Source: Eledone cirrhosa
Lineage: Eukaryota
Length of the DNA: 64,000 nucleotides
Assembly: GCA_964016885.1 (NCBI GenBank)
Contig: OZ024740.1
Span: forward strand, 272,676,001-272,740,000
Direction: 5' to 3'
The notes beneath the pieces are model-generated. The model worked only from the letters and a program-made list of their open reading frames with translations. It had not been told where the DNA came from and did no database searches. Position numbers and translations under genes: made by a program. The first letter of the stretch is position 1, and each line of letters opens with the position of its first letter. This document shows positions 4,253-46,110 of this stretch, one piece after another.

Positions 4253-4394
4253 AGAAATTATTTAGCCTGATAGTGGGGTTAAGAACCCTCGGAGAAATGG
4301 AAAAAGATGAGTATTGACGTACATGTACGTCAATACTCATCTTTTTCCATTTCTCCGAGGGTTCTTAACCCCACTATCAGGCTAAATAATTTCT
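4253..4394. repeat. Perfect 142-bp palindrome (fold-back element, same family as 12586-12786)
   Basis: Exact reverse-complement symmetry about 4323/4324. Confidence 0.85.
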
Positions 4395-4489: not shown

Positions 4490-7371
<2,882 letters not shown>

Positions 7372-12585: not shown

Positions 12586-12786
12586 AAAATAGAAATTGAA
12601 GCTTTTGCCGTACTTTTAACTAAAGAAATTTTAGCCTGGTAGTGGGGTTCAGAACCCTCTAAGAAATGGAAAAATATGAGTACGTCAATACTCATCTTTT
12701 CCCATTTTCTAGAGGGTTCTAAACCCCACTATCCGGCTAAAATTTCTTTAGTAAAAAAATATGGTGAAAGCTTATATTTCTATTTT
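12586..12786. mobile_element. Fold-back element (family of 4253-4394), diverged arms
   Basis: Imperfect inverted arms centred at ~12682, with a GAAAGCTTA hammerhead 3' half near 12766. Confidence 0.7.
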
Positions 12787-13733
12787 CCAACTCGCTTCAT
12801 GTTTCAAAAACAAACCTACTCGTATTCATTTTTTCATATACCACCCCAACCCACCCAGTACCGGAAGAATAAAATGAATATGTAAAACCGGTGGAATTTG
12901 AAGAGAGAATATTAATTGTAATGTGTCATAAGATGCTGTACAACGGTACAACATCTATAAACAGTTGTTCTTCTCAATCCAGATATCCGCAAAGCAAAAA
13001 AAAAAAAAAATAAATAAAAATAAATAAATAAAAGAAAAAAACTGATTAAAATATGTCAACGAGACCTTTGTGAGGCCGCAATGAATTTAATAAAAAAATG
13101 AGTGAAAAAATGGTTGCATCAAAGTAGTTAAAGCTACTCGAGTTAAATCACTATAATTAAACTTTTGATAAAGCCTATAAATATATTAAAATCATCAACA
13201 GTACACCGATGTAATTAATGAATTAGGAAAAATCTAAATAAAAAATAAAGACAAAATTTATCTTTCAAGATTTTTTGACCTAAAGAAATAAATTAACTAC
13301 AACGAGGAAAATTGTTTTAACAAACATATACACCCCTCCCCCACAAAAAATAAATAAAAAAATTATGAATTGCTTAAATCTATTAAATAAATATATTAGA
13401 AGTACGTTTACTGATATTGTAATTGTTTTAATGTGTTTAAACGATGTTTCGTAAGTTATATAATTTAAAAAGGTATAAATCGGGTGGTGAATGGCAGAAT
13501 CAGTAGATTCAGTGATGTTGTTTCTTCATTGTCAGCAGTTTCCGTTCAAAATTCAACTTCAGCCTCCAGTACAAATTCGGAGCTTATTCTTACAAGCTTC
13601 ATGAAATTAATTCCAGTCAACTATAATTAAAACCACAAATCAGGGATCAATGTTTCTCTCTATCTCTCTCTCTCTATATATATATATATAATGGAAAACG
13701 AAAAATCAGTGATGCAGCGGAACTCAATTTATT

Positions 13734-13848: not shown

Positions 13849-13905
<57 letters not shown>

Positions 13906-13909
<4 letters not shown>

Positions 13910-14815
13910 ACATTATAAAGAAAGAAGAAATATTAGAAATAAATAAATAAATAAATACCTATTATTTCTTCAAATTCCCGACTGTACAGTTTCGTGGCTA
14001 CTTTGCAAAAATCCTATATCATAGAGATGTAGTATTCTTGTGAGGTTTGCCAACTTATTAAGAGAATACCTCATTTAAAGTTTCAAAACAGTTCCGTATC
14101 GCGCGAGAGAGAATCCCGGGAAGGCGGAGGCGGAATTTATCACGTGTTACAGCGGTCACGAAACAGAGCTAAGTCCTTTATAGCCATGAGAAATGTCACA
14201 AATGGCGGAGGGGGCATTAATACCTAGGCTACAGACGAGGTGGCAAGGGAGGCTAGAAGTGTAAATAGTATTAGCTTGAAAGCAGTCACTATACTTCAGT
14301 AGTTACACTATCGTGAGGGAGTTATAGACAATAATGAGGAATACACAGATACATGTGAATACATACATATACATGCACAAACACACATATATCTTTCACA
14401 AGTATGTGATATTATGTGTTGCCAACCTTAACCGTTGTTGCTCTATGATAAAGAGGGACAAAATAATTGGAATGAATTAAATTGATTCTATATGAGAGCT
14501 ATATAATACATTATAAAGAAAGAAGAAACATTAGATATAAATAAATAAATACCTATTATTTCTCCACATTCTCGACTGTACAGTTTCGTGGCTACTTTGC
14601 AAAAGAGATGTAGTATTCTTGTGAGGTTTGCCAACTTATCAAGAGAATACCTCATATAAAGTTTCAAAACAGTTCCGTATCGCGCGAGAGAATGGCATTT
14701 CTCATGGCTATAAGGGACTTAGCTCTGTTTCTTGACGCTGTATCACGTGATAAATTCCCCCTCCACCTTCCTGGGATTCTCTCTCGAGCGATGCGGAACA
14801 GTTTTGAAACTTTAT
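13906..14815 (-). mobile_element. PLE remnant with tandem pseudo-LTRs (13906-14200, 14505-14690) and inverted segment (14692-14815)
   Basis: Direct and inverted self-homology with (TA)n flanks. A third partial copy lies at 43110-43255. Confidence 0.7.
14568..14648 (-). ncRNA. Type I hammerhead ribozyme, U3-A8 variant (UUGAUAA)
   Basis: Reverse complement reads attctc-TTGATAA-gttggc...gccac-GAAAC-tgtaca-GTC-gagaat. The paralog at 13974-14067 has TTAATAA. Confidence 0.75.
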
Positions 14816-14843
14816 ATATATTTAAATATATATATATTTAAAT

Positions 14844-14876
<33 letters not shown>

Positions 14877-14880
<4 letters not shown>

Positions 14881-15234
14881 AAGAAAAAGGGATGAAATCG
14901 AAAATGCAACTGAAGTCTTATTTTTTTAAAAATATATATATTTATTTGGTTCCTTTACCGGTTTCGCAGTTCTTCTGCTTTTCAAAAGGTGAGTTGAGAT
15001 GGAGGGTCTGTGGTTTTTCTCACATCTCAGATGTGAGAAAAACCACAGACCCTCCATCTCAACTCACCTTTTGAAAAGCAGAAGAACTGCGAAACCGGTA
15101 AAGGAACCAAATAAATATATATATTTTTAAAAAAATAAGACTTCAGTTGCATTTTCGATTTCATCCCTTTTTCTTTATACTTCCACTCGTGTAGGACACC
15201 TCGGTTATTTTTCATTTTGTAAAAAAAACCTCAC

Positions 15235-15237
<3 letters not shown>
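14877..15237 (+). mobile_element. Perfect ~300-bp palindromic PLE remnant plus 3' tail, in (TA)n
   Basis: Identical arms at 14877-15027 and 15029-15179 about C15028, tail at 15180-15237. Confidence 0.85.
15067..15104 (+). ncRNA. Minimal type I hammerhead ribozyme, U3-A8 variant (UUGAAAA); mirror copy on - strand 14952-14989
   Basis: cctt-TTGAAAA-gcag-aagaa-ctgc-GAAAC-cg-GTA-aagg. All stems are perfect. Confidence 0.8.
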
Positions 15238-15266
<29 letters not shown>

Positions 15267-15364
15267 TAAGGAACGATCGACTTTCGTCAAATCGGACCGA
15301 GGGAACAATGTTTCCGTTGGTCTTTCCAATTGCTAATACTATCTATCGGTCGCAACTCCAGGTA

Positions 15365-29046: not shown

Positions 29047-29247
29047 GATAGAGTAAGACACGCTTCGCATCGGCTCCGCTATTCCATCGGGATTTACCCT
29101 TGCTATTGTAAGTACCGGATAAATTTTTTAGTGCAACACATTTGGAACACTAACCCCTGTTATTTAGGGAAACATTTTTGCATTTACCCCCTTTTTAGGG
29201 GGTAAAATAAATATCTATTTTTGCCGAAAAATTTCTTTCTTGGCAGC

Positions 29248-31086
29248 ATGGCGGAAAAGATGGCAGACATGTCTGCCATTAGCTCTGCCACGCCCCCCAA
29301 GTCTGAAGAACAAAAAATAATTACAACAAAATTAGACATTGAAACAAACAAACAAAATGAAAAAACAAATGTTAAGGAAAATGAGCAAACAGAAAACAAA
29401 CAAACAGAAAATAATACAAATAACGACAGGGCAACTTTCGCCCAGAAAACAAAGCAATCCATTACATACACACCAATTGACCTAACTGCCGCCAGAGAAA
29501 AACTGGCCGAAGCAAAGAAACATATTGTTTTGGGGGAAAACGGAATGTTTTCCATTAACTCCCCCCCAGAATTCAAGAAAGCCAGAGCAGAAAACACAGT
29601 TATATACAGAACTATACTAAACCAGTCAAGAAAGCCAGCACAGCCCAGCCAAATGGAAATAGAGTTAGTCCTAAAAGACTATATGAAGAATATTCTCTTC
29701 ATACGAAAGGACCGACTCTATGGCAGCATTTCGGTCCTAACAAGAGACAAAGAAACGGCGGTTCAGCTTTCCCTAAGCCCACTCTCGTCGACAACATATA
29801 GCTTCTATCCCTCCTACATGGGTAGAAGAACTCAGAGAATAAAAGTAAAAACAATGCTGCCCACAATGGACTTCTGGTGGGCTATTGCTGGCTTCATTGA
29901 TATGGGCGAAGACACTATGCTGTCAATGGGGAAGGCAACTGGAGATGCGTTCCTGGGAATGGGCCTCGACATACTAGTCCAAATGAGGCCCGAAAGAATA
30001 GCACAAATCCCGGATCGCATCTGGCTGGATGACCTTACCCCAATAGACATAATTGTAGAGGGGAGAAGACCAGCATGCTATTTATGCATGGAAAGGGGAC
30101 ACGTTAAGGCTAACTGCCCGAAACGTATCCCCCAAAAAGGACTATTGCCCACACCCACCACAAACAGTACACCAGCACCACCCACCTCCAAAAATACACT
30201 AATACCACACACAGCAAACAAAATACAGACACCACCAACCACAAACACAACACAAACATCACCACCACCAGCACCAAACACAAGCACGACACAAAAATCA
30301 CCACCACCAACCACAACACAAACATCACCACCACCATTACCAACCACAAGCACGACACAAACATTACCACCACCACCACCACCACAAAACCCATTCCAAA
30401 CAAATAATAAAAAAAACAGTAACAAATCTACCCCTCCCGCAAAAAAAAAACAACCACACAACACGTCCCTCCCACCTAGCGCTGAAGAGTTTCCCCCAAC
30501 TTCTGAAGAAGAAGGAGGAGAAGCCTTCAGACAAGTTAAAAGAAAAAAAAGAAAACACACACCCAGCACACCACAAATAACCCACACACAAACACCAACT
30601 CCAATCAAAAACACCCCACCCTCAACAAACAAAAATAAATCTGCGCCTCCCCTCTCCGAAACATTGACAGCATCACAAAAAAAGACGTTGCAATACACAT
30701 ATATAAATAAAGAAAACAAAAAACTGGTTAAATTAATAAACAATAACCCTATGGTGCAGACCGAAGGGCCAAACTTTATCTCAACAGAGAACTTCACCCA
30801 TTTAAAAATGATAAAGGTCCCTCTGGACCTTTATCGTTCCTTAAAAGAACAATTTAGACGGGACGTGAGCCCCCCCTGTTTAAAACCGTTGAATCGCGTC
30901 CTCTTGAAAGATTTCCCCATAACCGCCCCTCTCCCTGACACAACTCCAAATACCCCAACCCCACCACACACGTGTACCCCCACACCACCACAAAACATCC
31001 CTCCACCCAACACACCTGATGCCATGGAAATTACGCAACCCGGAGAGGTAAGTGCTTTTCTTTCTTCACTTTCAACACCAAAATAG
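29248..31086 (+). CDS. LINE ORF1 (Gag-like, CCHC zinc knuckle, Pro/Thr-rich C-terminal region)
   Basis: CYLCMERGHVKANC motif. First ATG at 29248; the ORF track starts at an upstream TTG. Confidence 0.85.
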   Translation: MAEKMADMSAISSATPPKSEEQKIITTKLDIETNKQNEKTNVKENEQTENKQTENNTNNDRATFAQKTKQSITYTPIDLTAAREKLAEAKKHIVLGENGMFSINSPPEFKKARAENTVIYRTILNQSRKPAQPSQMEIELVLKDYMKNILFIRKDRLYGSISVLTRDKETAVQLSLSPLSSTTYSFYPSYMGRRTQRIKVKTMLPTMDFWWAIAGFIDMGEDTMLSMGKATGDAFLGMGLDILVQMRPERIAQIPDRIWLDDLTPIDIIVEGRRPACYLCMERGHVKANCPKRIPQKGLLPTPTTNSTPAPPTSKNTLIPHTANKIQTPPTTNTTQTSPPPAPNTSTTQKSPPPTTTQTSPPPLPTTSTTQTLPPPPPPQNPFQTNNKKNSNKSTPPAKKKQPHNTSLPPSAEEFPPTSEEEGGEAFRQVKRKKRKHTPSTPQITHTQTPTPIKNTPPSTNKNKSAPPLSETLTASQKKTLQYTYINKENKKLVKLINNNPMVQTEGPNFISTENFTHLKMIKVPLDLYRSLKEQFRRDVSPPCLKPLNRVLLKDFPITAPLPDTTPNTPTPPHTCTPTPPQNIPPPNTPDAMEITQPGEVSAFLSSLSTPK

Positions 31087-31091
31087 ATCAA

Positions 31092-34000
31092 TTGAGAGTT
31101 GGCTGTTTGAACGCGCGTGGCCTGAGCTCAGCTTGGAAGCAAGCAAAGCTTCTAAGTGACCTCAGGTCACAAAGTATAGATGTGATGGTTGTTTGCGAGA
31201 GTCGGATCAGCAGCGTGAGACAGCTGGCGCCCGCCTTCGATGACTTTGAGATGCACGCATCTCTCTGTCAACCCGGAGGCGGGGGGGGGGAGTTGCCGTA
31301 CTGCTGGATAAACGTCTGACTCTCGACGTACAGATTGTTCACTCGGACCCGGGGGGTCGATTACTGGTGCTGGACGTCGGAGGTGGTGAAGGCGGGGCTT
31401 TCAGACTGGTCGGTCTTTATGCTCCCTTCGGGGCGGAGAGAGCCGACTTCTTCCAACGTCTGGAGACTTTTCTAGGAACGTCGCGTTCCCTGCTTTTAGT
31501 GGGGGACTGGAATGGAATCCTAGATGCGCGTTGGGACTATGCAGGGGCATGTCCCGATAGAGGGGGGTGTAGCAGCCTCAAGGGGTTACTCGATCGATTC
31601 GACCTGGTCGATAGATTTCGACTAGATTGTCCAACTGCGCCAACCTGGACCTGGGCAAACCGCAGTGGACAATCTAGATCGTACCTAGATAGGTTTTTGG
31701 TTAGGAGTAAGGATAGGGACGTATTTAGTTGTCCAGAACTGATCATGGTTGGCTATTCAGATCACAAATTAGTGACCTGCGTGGTCAACCTTGATAGAAC
31801 GCATAGACAGGGTCCCGGTTACTGGAAGATGAACTTGTCCTTACCGACAAAGAAAGATTACAGAAACCGGATTAGTAGCTTAGTTAAGATGCGGTTGACG
31901 GGAGCGATCGTCAACAGCAGGTGGTGGGTATCTCTAAAGAGAGAGATTAGAGTAAGTTCGATAGGTTACAGTAAGGAACTAGCGGCGAATAGAAATAGGA
32001 GGGAAAGGGAGTTAACAGATAAACTAGAAGAGGCGATTAGGAGCGGAGACGTAGCCAGAGTGTTAGCGACGAGAACGGCATTGAGCCAGTTCTTTGACGC
32101 GAAGCACGAAGGCTGCGTTGTCCGAAGTAAAATACGTGCTTTAGGAAACGAGGGGACCAAAGCTGTTAGCTGGGCCCGCGTGACAGAAGCCAAGAGTGGG
32201 ATTAAATCCACCATTCGGTCTTTGCGAGACCAGGATGGACGGGTGATCCTTGAACCTGAGCGAATGTGCGAGACCTTTCAAAGGCACTTTGCTCGACTGT
32301 TCGGAGGTGGCGGGGGGCCGGACGGGGATGTGGACTTCGGTCCATACCTCGACGGTCTACCGCGTCTTTCGAGCGGCGAAGCGGAGTGCTGCGAAGGGCC
32401 AATCACAGCCACTGAAATCGGGGAAGCGCTCAGCCAATGCAGCAGACGCAAATCCCCGGGTCTCGATGGTCTACCATACGAACTTTATTTAGCTATGCCG
32501 GTCTTGTTCTCCGAACTCCTCGAGGCTGTCTATTGCAACTGGCAACAGAACGGGAGAATTCCCTGTTCTGTGACCAAGGGCGTGGTCACGCTAGTGAGGA
32601 AGGACGAGAGCAAGGGGGACGACTTAAGTAACTTTAGGCCCATAACTCTGCTGAATGCAGAGTTACAGATTTTGGCCAAGGTGTTGACGAAGAGGTTGGC
32701 GCTTGTGGTGGGTGGTTTGGTGGGAGACGCGCAGACATGCGCTATCCCGTCCAGGTCCATTCACGACAACCTCCACCTCATGCGATACATCATAGAGAGG
32801 GTTGGCTACGAACCCGGCTTTGGTGGGGCCCTGATCAACTTGGATCAATCTAAGGCGTTCGATAGGGTCGACCATGGTTACCTGGATGCGGTGCTAGCGG
32901 CGGCGGGCTTCGGACCCGTTTTCAGGGGCTGGATTTCTGCCATGCACAGTGGCAACATCTACTCTAGGATTAAAGTAAACGGCTACCTCTCGGAGCCGTT
33001 TCAAATCACCCGATCCATCAGACAGGGGTGCCCCCTCTCCTCCCTTCTGTACGTATTGACTCTCGAGCCACTGCTGCGGAAGTTGGAGTTGCTGCGGGGC
33101 ATACCCCTGGAACCGGGATTGCACAAAGCGGTCTCGGCCTATGCCGACGACGTAACAGTAATGGTGGCGGACGCCTCGGAAATCGGGGCGATCGCCACCC
33201 TACTGGAGGAATACGAAAGGCTGACGGGGGCTAAGCTGAACCAGGACAAGTCGGTCGGTTTGCAACTCGGAACGTGGAGGGGCAAACCGATGCCGTTGGA
33301 CGGTGTCGTCGGGCGGTGGACGGAGGGCCCGGTGAAGCTGCTCGGGGTCTGGTTCGGACCGGACCTCCAGGTGGAGAAGAATTGGGGCGAGGTGACGAGC
33401 AGGGTGTTTGCGCTGACCCAGAAGTGGGCCAAGTGCAAACTATCACTGAAAGGTCGGGCGGAGGTGACGAACGCTTACATAGCGTCCGTCATCTACTACC
33501 GCCTGACCGTCGTGCCTTGCCCCAAGGAAAAGCTCACCATCATGGAACGCATGCTCTTCCAGTTCCTCTGGAAGAAGCGGCCTCCCATGGTGAGGAGATC
33601 CATCTGCTGCCAGCACCCTTCGAAAGGAGGGCTGGGTATGCCGTGGCTGTTGATGCGTAGGCACGCATTGAGGCTACGGCATCTACAGGTATTCCTCAAC
33701 GGTCAGCCGGTGTGGGCCCCGTTTGTGAGGCGAGCCTTCCCACAGCTCGTCTCGCTCACCGAACTGCAATCCTGGGTGAAGCAAAGACCGAGAAAACTGG
33801 GCAACTGGCACACTGAGTGTGCCCAGGCGCTCACGGCTATCTGGCAAGCGGACCCGACTGTCAGTGGAGAATCCACCTCGACATTCTATAGAGGGTTGGT
33901 GGCTAGCAGGGGCGACGACACCCTTGGAGAGTCGCTAGGCATGGAGGAGGACGAACTGGCCAGCCTGTTCGGTAGAACTTTCGGCCCGGGACCCATGGAC

Positions 34001-34522
34001 AACTTCCAGAGGTCCCTAGCCTGGCAGTGTTACCGGGGGGCTCTGCCCGTTCGAGAAAAGCTCTACAGACACGGGCGCCCGGGCAGGGATCCCGCGAAAA
34101 AGATCTGTCCCAGATGCGTGCGCGACGAGGAAACCGTTGCGCATGCACTGGTACACTGCCCGGGCGTTGCCGATCTGTGGGGCTACGTCGAACGACTGCT
34201 GTCGCGTGTGGCGCCGATTCGATTAACCGCCGAGTCTGTGGTGAACATCAAGCCGCCTCCTCCCTTCAGAAATGAAGCAGAGGCGGTCTTTCTGTGCGTA
34301 ATAGCCATGATGAAAGAGGTTGTGTGGTGGACGCGCCTGAAAGGTCTGAGGTCGGGTGACTTTCTCTCCGGCCATCACCTGGTTTACTTCTTCCGATACC
34401 ACTTCGGAAGAAGAATCAGGATGGAGAGAGAAGTGCTTGGTCCCAGACAGTTTTATGAAAGGTGGGTGAAAGAAGCGAGAATGGCCCGTGTAAATGGGCC
34501 TTCTCTCTACATTGTTCTGTAG
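31092..34522 (+). CDS. LINE ORF2 (APE endonuclease, reverse transcriptase, C-terminal Cys/His motif); one frameshift in a G10 run at 31281-31290
   Basis: Motifs LNARG, GDWN, SYLDRF, SDH, KSPGLDG, NFRPITLLN, DQSKAFD, RQGCPLS, YADD and CPRC..ETVAHALVHC. Confidence 0.92.
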
Positions 34523-43039: not shown

Positions 43040-43113
<74 letters not shown>

Positions 43114-43889
43114 CATTATAAAGAAAGAAGAACATTAGACATAAACAAAAAAATATAAATACCCAATATTCCTCTACTATCTCGACTGCGCAGTTTCGTG
43201 GCTACTTTGCAAAAACATTACATCATAGAGATGCAGTATTTCTGTGAGGTTGGAACCACACAAAATCAGGGATATATGTGCGTATATGCATGTATATGTA
43301 TGTATTCGCATGTATCTGTGTATTTCTTTATATTGTATATATATATATATAGAGAGAGAGAGATTTGCGAGGTTTTTGATATGAAATCGTATGTCGAAAC
43401 AAATATTGTTATACTTGGGGAGGGTCATATTTGTGTAGTAATATTTCCAGAATTAATAACAGAACACACTCACTCTTTGGTTGGTTTTCACTTCTGTGTC
43501 TTTTATATCGGTTAATTTAATTTATTCGGTCCTCAATGTTACCATTGACTGACCAACGGTCAAAAATACAGATACAATATAGACACAAACACATATATAT
43601 ATATTCTAACAAAGTTCTTTCGTTGCACATCTGCAACATCGTCAGTGGTGCTTATGTTTCCTCCCGTTGTATTGTATGCCTACGCCATCTTTATTTAGTC
43701 TGTTTATTTATTTATTTGTTTTGTTTTTTTGTCTTATCTGCGATTCTATTTGCGTGTGTGTATAGTGTTTTGTTTGATGTGTGTTCGTGTTTGGATAACT
43801 GTGTATTGGTTATTGTATTCTATCTTAGTTTACTAGTGTGTTTATATGTGTTTGCTGTTATTGTGCTTGTGTATGTATTTATTTATTTA

Positions 43890-46110
43890 TTTATACTTCC
43901 CGTAAATCAGTGTTGTTTGTTTGGGTGTTGTTATTCCATTCATTTTTTCTGTTTAGCCTTGGCCTTCTAAGTTCTATTTCGCTGGCCTCTCTGATTTGCC
44001 TATGTTCTGGGTCATTTCTATGTTTAGATATTATTCCAATTTCTATGTTGTCTATGTTACCGCCGTGTTGTTGTCTGGCATGTTCGTATAGTACTGAACG
44101 TTTTTTCGTTCTTTTAGTTCCCCCCAGTGTTGGTCTATCCTTTCACCTATGCTACGAGCTGTCTCGCCTATGTATGTTGTTGTCATGTTTCTGCAAGTAC
44201 CCTCTGTACATCTTATGCTATAGACTACGTTTCTAGTTTTACAGTTTATCCGGGGGTTTACTTTACATATAATACATTTCCTATTAGTACAGTGGGTTTT
44301 CTTAAAAGGCTAGGTTTTGTTGATCAGAGATTTTATGGTGGTTCCTGGCTTGTCTAACACCTTAATCTTTAAGTGGGTCTTTCTCAAGGCCTTTCTACAC
44401 TGGTTAGCTAATTTCCCTCAAGGGGTAGCGTCCACCAACATGACACTGGTATCTCTGGTTGTCGTACCATGAGGTGGCTTTCCCTATCTTATGTCTAGTC
44501 CTATCTAAGCTACTCCATGATTTGCTCCTGTATAATGGGCAAATTCCTTTCGTGTTCAGTTCTATGAGGGTCTTATACTTCTTCGTGGCTCCTTCGTATA
44601 CTCTGATTCTGTCTCTTTGGTTGTAGCCAGAGAATTGCATGCGGTTGATGAAGTGTTGGATGTGTCTTTCCATTTTTGTTCGGTTGCACATGCGGGACAC
44701 GTTCTTCAATCGTACCAAGTCTGCGATCAGAATATTAAACTTAGCACTACTGGACATTGCTGTGTTTTTGAGTATCAGGTATTTGGAGGCCATGGGTTTA
44801 GCATAGTGTGAGTGGAGAATTTGGGCTCTCTCGTCTATAGTGTTAATCCAGAGTTCTGTGTCTAATACAGGTAGTCTATTGTTAGGGTGTTTTGAAGGGT
44901 AGTCGATAGTTACAATTATACTCTGGTGTATGGAATTAGCTATCTGGTGGATGCTTTCCATTGTGCTACGTTCTAAATCAAATTTGTTAGTACTCTCTGG
45001 TGGGGATGTTCTTATTACTATATTGATGTCGTCTACGTAACGAGTGTACATGATGAGGTCTATGGAGCTCTCATCAAGAAGATCTTTGAGTCTCCTTTCC
45101 CACCATACCATAACAAGGTTGGCAACCTCACCAGCTATGCTGTCGCCAATGGCTGCTCCCTCATTTTGGGTGTAGATCTTCTCGTTGAATTTGAATATGT
45201 GGCCCTTTAGGGTAGTTTTGATACTAGCCCCTATTGCATGTGCGACCATTTTTCTTACCTGATCATTGGTTTGGGAGGTCCGTATAGCTTTGGTCCACCC
45301 AATCCACCTTCCCAGTATTTTTTGCTATTGAGGTTATGGGGGGGGGGGGGGGGCTACCTCTTATGGGTCTACTGGGGCAGAAACCTCTAAGGCCATGGCT
45401 GTCTAGGTAGTCAGTGTCATAGGTAAGTCTAAGTAGGAGGACCGGTTCGTCTGTGTCGACGTGGCAGAACTCCACCTCACTCTCAATGATCATCTCCACA
45501 CATTTTTCCACAGCAAAATCATTGTTAATGGATGGGTAGGTGATACCACATCCATACTGCCTATTATGCAGTTGGATAGGTTCCTGTATTTGTTGCACTC
45601 ACTGATTCTGCTGAGGAGGTCATCTGTACTGACACATACATCTGGGGACATCTTGATTATGGGGCGTATAACCATTGAGAGGAAGTAGGAGATCCTGTAG
45701 TTGCTAGCTATATTTGCTCCGCATACGGGTCTTGTTGGTGGTCCTGTTGTCGGGTCGTCGACTGTCTTGTGGTCTTTGCGGAGCCCATACAGGATGGTAA
45801 GCCATTGCTAGACGCCTGGAAGTTGTTGGCAGTGCGCCTGCTTGGCTTTAGGATGTCGGTCCACATCATCATGTAAGCGTTGAGGATTTTCTCTCTCCCA
45901 TCATGTATTTTCTGTGCAATTTCGCTCGTGTTGGTGATGTGGGGTTGCATACCATTGATGTAGTTCGGCATGCTCTCTATTGGCATCCTACCAGACTTAA
46001 CCGTGGGTAGACATACTACCTCACCATCCCTTGTGCGCTGCTTGAGGCTAACCAAGCATTCTACAGATTTCCTCCCAATTGTTGGACATCTGGTCTGGTC
46101 TGTCTCTCAG
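43890..46110 (-). pseudogene. PLE reverse transcriptase + GIY-YIG endonuclease (disrupted)
   Basis: IIGSMDV, FKFNEKIYTQNEGAAIG, YTRYVDD, LPVLD, KPMAS. Multiple frameshifts. Confidence 0.88.

Follow-up and report, generated by a model that had tools for sequence, protein, structure and literature searches.

Why does a 64,000-nucleotide stretch of the Eledone cirrhosa genome (hereafter, the window) carry one small hammerhead ribozyme motif on both strands of a perfect palindrome, and would either copy act as a ribozyme? Inverted-repeat analysis identified a perfect inverted repeat at 14877–15179, with arms of 151 bp each and one unpaired base, C15028, between them. The 38-mer at 15067–15104 (+) is the exact reverse complement of 14952–14989, which bears out the preliminary description of the same 38-nt motif on both strands of identical arms. 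The element extends 68 bases past the right arm, and this extension is absent from the left arm. When both strands of the 64-kb window were screened with a strict type I descriptor that demands a 4-bp helix I and allows no inserted base, just these two intervals matched. The motif fits a type I minimal hammerhead, with the core YUGANRA ... GAAA ... UH and three helices, and its positions 3 and 8 form a Watson–Crick pair, U3-A8. Helix III is a 2-bp stem only, or an intermolecular 6-bp palindrome. Rfam at the gathering score gave no match anywhere in the 64-kb window, and the monomer hammerhead fold is no stabler than shuffled sequences (−6.4 kcal/mol; z −0.94). The hammerhead assignment thus depends on the core motif and on comparison rather than on folding energy. 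The features of the locus are collected in Table 1.

Table 1 Features of the palindrome and its surroundings (window coordinates; L068 is an intact element of the same family, and pLTR stands for pseudo-LTR).
Feature	Position	Strand	Basis or remark
Minimal type I hammerhead, right arm	15067–15104	+	U3-A8 core
Minimal type I hammerhead, left-arm copy	14952–14989	−	U3-A8 core
Helix I, CCTT/AAGG	15067–15070/15101–15104	+	Descriptor match
Core TTGAAAA (U3 U4 G5 A6 A7 A8 A9)	15071–15077 (U3, 15071; A8, 15076)	+	
Helix II, GCAG/CTGC, with 5-nt loop, followed by GAAA	15078–15081/15087–15090	+	
Palindromic helix III, ACCGGT	15094–15099	+	
Triplet GTA, predicted cut after 15100	15100/15101	+	
Left arm: inverted short pLTR copy, inferred RNA start to inner end point +150, tail-less	14877–15027	−	151/151 against L068 pLTR
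Axis base, unpaired, where the two 5' ends join; matches the base preceding the inferred RNA start on the + arm	15028		
Right arm: pLTR copy, inferred RNA start to +150	15029–15179	+	
One-sided tail, 68 nt: stretch of the 5' element body bounded by the two inferred reverse-transcription start sites	15180–15247	+	Enters (TA)n
(TA)n-rich target, left	14812–14880		From sequence
(TA)n target, right	15241–15267		From sequence
Candidate 97-nt intron	15098–15194	+	Donor CCG/GTAAAG on the cleavage triplet; pyrimidine tract and TAG/G acceptor inside the tail

The arms belong to an abundant family of retrotransposons. A 22-mer running from helix II to helix III has 12,495 exact occurrences in the 3.0-Gb genome (control, 0), and TTGAAAA lies upstream of it in all 30 loci fetched with this 22-mer. 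Upstream of one such locus, the sequence encodes a GIY-YIG C-terminus, and a search with it brought up near-identical copies in large number (150 were scored, of 10,486 candidates). A 775-aa frame is present in 16 of 16 loci that had been chosen for that open frame. It contains the motifs DKG and YLDD, a CX4CxxC linker and, at the C-terminus, a GIY-YIG domain. Pfam places GIY-YIG at residues 682–772, above the cut-off (E 3.7e-6), and reports RVT_1 under it (E 4.9e-6; 26.8 versus 29.6 bits). The linker CGRSNCGTC before GIY-YIG, CKGC within it, and two His residues further on constitute the CCHH configuration as defined in the consulted part of PMC8557442. By such motif definitions, the parent fits a Neptune/Nematis-type (EN+) Penelope-like element (PLE); named references are absent from the 120 homologs listed.

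The intact element L068 illustrates the layout. Its 5' pLTR carries a CCAAT box, a TATA box and a hammerhead at 2057–2094, and is followed by a 400-aa ORF1 without a Pfam match, the RT-endonuclease frame and approximately 1 kb of 3' sequence, with a second hammerhead 4.68 kb from the first. A slippery heptamer, T TTT TTA (within L068 3392–3461), is predicted to direct a −1 shift from ORF1 into the RT-endonuclease frame; no strong structure is predicted downstream of this heptamer. Hammerheads on the same strand both upstream and downstream of the ORF occur in L066, L068 and L076, giving the pseudo-LTRs of a partial tandem. The window's right arm and its 68-nt tail are identical to the L068 pLTR over 219 of 219 positions, and the left arm over 151 of 151; the insertion is therefore young, as had been proposed from the identity of its arms. 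Two other classifications were rejected. Naiad elements have an N-terminal endonuclease and no canonical hammerhead, whereas GIY-YIG is C-terminal here. Non-LTR retrozymes are head-to-tail tandem units with a hammerhead in each and no ORF (bioRxiv 10.64898/2026.07.22.740005, available part), whereas the window holds a head-to-head pair and an autonomous parent exists.

The window also contains other repeats. A second Penelope-like family is represented by identical C3-G8 hammerheads at 43653 (−) and 47760 (+), which face outwards approximately 4.1 kb apart; an RT-like frame lying between them (44407–45324, −) gives a weak RT match. A further (TA)n palindrome, at 2753–2899, has a C3-G8 hammerhead-like motif per arm whose helix II pairs poorly; related copies are present in L029, L086 and L103. 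The perfect palindrome at 4253–4394 (66-bp arms) belongs to a different repeat family, also seen at 12590–12810, L119 and L145, and a C3-G8 hammerhead-like motif lies near it at about 4545–4584 (−). The repeat adjoining our locus, at 13902–14817, combines a direct duplication with an inverted part and recurs at 43093–43251, L011, L012 and L105. A two-ORF LINE occupies 29206–34519 (+), in which a 626-aa ORF without a Pfam match precedes a 1090-aa frame with endonuclease and RT domains.

The ends of the family's copies indicate how the palindrome may have formed. They were read from the first 100 of 12,793 matches to a 17-mer downstream of the cut, with 99 distinct copies among 111 aligned. We infer from the DNA that the element RNA starts at +0, which is 30 nt behind the TATA box of full elements. 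The 5' ends of 48 of the 99 copies lie near this point (−3 to +10); the others fall further upstream (26), at +11 to +69 (8), at +70 to +75 (4), or later (13). The 3' ends concentrate at two points, +218 (57 copies) and approximately +150 (39), with 3 elsewhere. In run X1, depth increases roughly threefold at the inferred RNA start, and both 3' points show loose TA ends. Both arms of the window palindrome begin at the 5' pile-up point, and one stops at +150 and the other at +218. The template RNAs appear to have been mostly uncut, because at least 82 of the 99 copies read through the cut site and because most stubs start upstream of the cut, at the point 30 nt past the TATA box.

Very probably, then, the palindrome consists of two short hammerhead-bearing pLTR ends of a young Penelope-like retrotransposon, placed head to head in (TA)n, and likely derives from a double-strand cut that primed two cDNAs on uncut RNA. 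In the proposed sequence of events, the element's enzyme would cut both target strands within a (TA)n tract, and reverse transcription would be primed by both target ends, at two sites inside the RNA (+150 and +218), each of which ends in a short TA run able to pair with the target. Uncut element RNAs would serve as templates, each cDNA would extend to the RNA 5' end, and joining of the two cDNA ends would create the axis. Four head-to-head pairs carry the same rare core mutation on both arms (G000:C17:32853228–32853378, C22:8519594–8519721, C7:64038885–64039395 and C4:262303147–262303256). Such shared mutations suggest either that both arms were copied from one template or that conversion took place between them.

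The perfect arms, the lack of coding sequence and the high copy number speak for a non-autonomous DNA transposon of the MITE type, or for an assembly fold-back artefact. Nevertheless, we regard either origin as extremely improbable. The arms are pieces of an element encoding RT and GIY-YIG; axis position and arm lengths vary between insertions; and the outer ends are asymmetric, exactly one arm being tailed in 40 of 42 head-to-head pairs (loci L001–L030 and L061–L170). Against an artefact in particular, contigs from run X1 also contain an opposite-strand joint within the pLTR, although X1 is possibly the assembly's own source.

The U3-A8 core had been presented as a compensatory, functional natural variant. 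It is a genuine compensatory pair that covaries across related elements, and it is not new, having been published already (PMC3088659 and PMC4209133, in the parts consulted). The proposed check of whether other genomic copies keep U3-A8 gave approximately 99.5% keeping it, but this count cannot decide function, since the core is inherited from a master and afterwards erodes in each copy as fast as a neutral position does. Against a reference of about 11,800 intact copies, counted with a slightly different pattern from the single-position counts, position 3 is altered in 68 copies, all of which retain A8, and position 8 in 53 copies, all of which retain U3. Neutral position 7 is also altered in 53 copies. 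The exceptions are thus neutral decay, and no compensatory 3-8 change occurs among the 68 and 53 altered copies. As sequence evidence, the within-family copies neither support nor refute ribozyme function. One subfamily has lost an end pair of helix I without compensation (40 of 89 copies, about 45%), a proportion that points to weak selection on the ribozyme. Both subfamilies keep every core position and the palindromic helix III intact.

Comparison between families is more informative. A first metagenome scan with a single protein query found no relatives. The set used here comprises 97 loci of related RTs at 23–49% identity, more distant than the closest homologs (50–74% identity), and was scanned with a pattern that did not require 3-8 pairing. 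We obtained 38 motif matches in 32 of the 97 loci, and 34 of the 38 are Watson–Crick at 3-8: 28 C-G, 4 U-A, 1 A-U and 1 G-C. All four Watson–Crick pairs are thereby found among PLE hammerheads, in a small sample. In the 4 remaining matches helix III spans a long gap that is not palindromic, and they appear to be chance matches. Individual related elements with A3-U8, G3-C8 or U3-A8 cores are L215 (1969), L221 (117), L185 (2216) and L220 (8 and 2650). On a tree of 25 loci plus the window family (7 loci with weak, antisense-only or mismatched matches were excluded), supported branches impose three separate changes to the U-A pair at 3-8. L175 and L178, the two closest relatives in which a motif is visible, have C3-G8 within the same architecture and with different palindromes, so the double change to U3-A8 became fixed on the lineage of the window family. 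The covariation between families supports function in the parent element. Penelope-like contigs, several with hammerheads, were also seen in bacterial genome bins (L251–L267) and are likely contamination from animal hosts.

Whether the window copy itself works is a separate matter. In folding calculations, read-through RNA of the palindrome forms a hairpin of approximately −264 kcal/mol (z −40) in which the probabilities of helices I and II are 0.0, while RNA of a single arm gives 0.14–0.27 for helix I and 0.8–0.96 for helix II. A two-molecule, hammerhead-shaped dimer reaches −18.9 kcal/mol in silico, compared with −6.4 for a monomer, so that the suggested dimerization through ACCGGT is plausible. 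The preliminary description had the locus cleaving after A15100, probably as such a dimer. In favor of a working pair, the motif is intact and identical to the master, the dimer is stable in silico, and an RNA that began at the axis and spanned one arm alone could fold the motif. However, the motifs lie on opposite strands, so no single RNA carries both; RNA crossing the palindrome folds into the hairpin; and the stub lacks the full pLTR's TATA and CCAAT boxes. We therefore consider a working pair at this locus very unlikely, and that part of the claim is not supported. The stable in silico dimer fits instead the parent RNA, whose motifs are 4.7 kb apart, or two RNAs acting in trans. On these models, the window copy is likely silenced by its own mirror image and is probably not working in place: the hammerhead would be a passenger in the stub, which has lost the upstream TATA box and whose read-through RNA would form a long hairpin. 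In the parent RNA, it may be a slow ribozyme, assisted by a dimer partner or by protein.

A more serious alternative accepts the same stub layout but takes the family hammerhead to be a dead relic carried along by a successful master. The helix I mismatch in a subfamily of about 45% of copies and the read-through of the cut site in at least 82 of 99 sampled copies are in line with this, as are the poor in vitro cleavage by PLE hammerheads reported in the consulted part of PMC4209133 and the dispensability of the hammerhead for insertion in vitro in that of PMC11167929. Conversely, a dead relic sits poorly with core positions and a palindromic helix III intact in both subfamilies, and with L175 and L178, which share the architecture but have C3-G8, so that a double change was fixed on the lineage. 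We rate it as unlikely, though it deserves consideration, and favor a parental hammerhead that retains some activity.

A possible trace of such activity was sought in the 5' ends. Among the 111 aligned copies, 4 start exactly at +72, the first base past the cut. Genome-wide, 206 matches start at +70 to +75, compared with 76 for a backwards control on one strand, and there are 83 at +63 to +68 and 49 at +76 to +78 (stricter pattern). By eye, the 100 matches listed of the 206 are distributed over +70 to +75 as 15, 16, 24, 21, 15 and 9. Internal duplications or deletions, also counted by eye, account for about 16 of these 100, as well as for roughly 31 of the 83 upstream and 10 of the 49 downstream matches. 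The 5'-end step at the cut is thus approximately threefold over the upstream window and only about twofold over the downstream bases, with no sharp peak. It concerns a few percent of copies at most, and each of three other causes could produce it: stalling of RT at helix I, fold-back at short palindromes nearby, or TA microhomology. If the step does reflect cleavage, it would be evidence, from the genome, of germ-line cleavage by a U3-A8 Penelope hammerhead. Our limited literature search found no earlier report of 5' ends at the cut site, and the part of PMC11167929 consulted gives no RNA reads ending there.

The cleavage triplet also coincides with the donor of a candidate intron (Table 1), and its splicing would take out the cut site together with helix I's 3' strand. 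With up to 1 mismatch allowed, the genome yielded no spliced copy; since PLEs keep introns, this zero is not evidence against the intron. The four contig sets compared break at 2090–2130, across the cleavage site, and are uninformative on cleavage or splicing; runs X5 and X6 (organisms B and C) yielded short pieces only. It is a tentative idea, which we think rather improbable, that the stubs are a fossil map of the element RNA in which a few percent start at the hammerhead cut, 5' ends being scarce within the ribozyme and rising at +70 to +73, and that the triplet doubles as a splice donor, so that splicing and self-cleavage could compete.

The comparison with known systems, for which each paper is cited from the part consulted, places the locus among familiar arrangements. 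Natural covariation from C3-G8 to U3-A8 was described by Perreault et al. (2011, PMC3088659), who call the swap active in vitro, citing Przybilski and Hammann (2007). Those covariants show the same swap as here, in examples that are not tied to this element; a literature search for the wording C3U/G8A returned no report. Cervera and De la Peña (2014, PMC4209133) described Cercyon PLEs of Schistosoma mansoni, with approximately 1,300 U3-A8 copies, opposite-strand pairs 100–700 bp apart, and minimal dimers that cleaved only weakly. The window family shares with them a minimal type I hammerhead in a pseudo-LTR, U3-A8, a palindromic helix III, a majority of copies without an ORF, and opposite-strand pairs. 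Unlike Cercyon, it has a 4-bp helix II, no base inserted after A9 and a 6-nt helix III palindrome.

Inverted 5'-truncated copies with a one-sided tail and a (TA)n bias are described for EN+ PLEs by Craig et al. (2021, PMC8557442). With the Neptune/Nematis elements of that study, the window family has in common the C-terminal GIY-YIG with CCHH, the CX2-5CxxC linker and the DKG motif, as well as partial tandems, the inverted 5'-truncated copy, the one-sided tail, the (TA)n target and an optional frameshifted ORF1. The tail is 68 nt in the window and 30–40 bp in theirs. For the Anolis element Poseidon_Ac, Frangieh et al. (2024, PMC11167929) describe a tail set by two internal RT starts, priming on both strands, a template that is mainly unprocessed RNA, and a ribozyme that requires the element's protein. 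Two internal RT starts bounding the tail, a mainly uncut template and a pLTR hammerhead are thus common to both systems. In Poseidon_Ac, however, the RT starts are located within the ORF and lack homology to the target; in the window family they are located in the 5' leader, with a TA run at the end of each, and the core is C3-G8 in Poseidon_Ac but U3-A8 here. The in vivo role of PLE hammerheads is called unclear in both PMC8557442 and PMC11167929.

With the variant core already published, and likewise the dimer model and the inverted layout, the finding at this locus is an ordinary one. The value lies in the family, which is young, has many intact ORFs, and makes the RNA start and two RT starts legible from DNA. 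Its copies number more than 12,000 and are homogeneous, compared with approximately 1,300 heterogeneous ones in Cercyon (PMC4209133), and it permits 5' junctions at the cut site to be counted across the genome, a cheap test of the role of PLE hammerheads in vivo.
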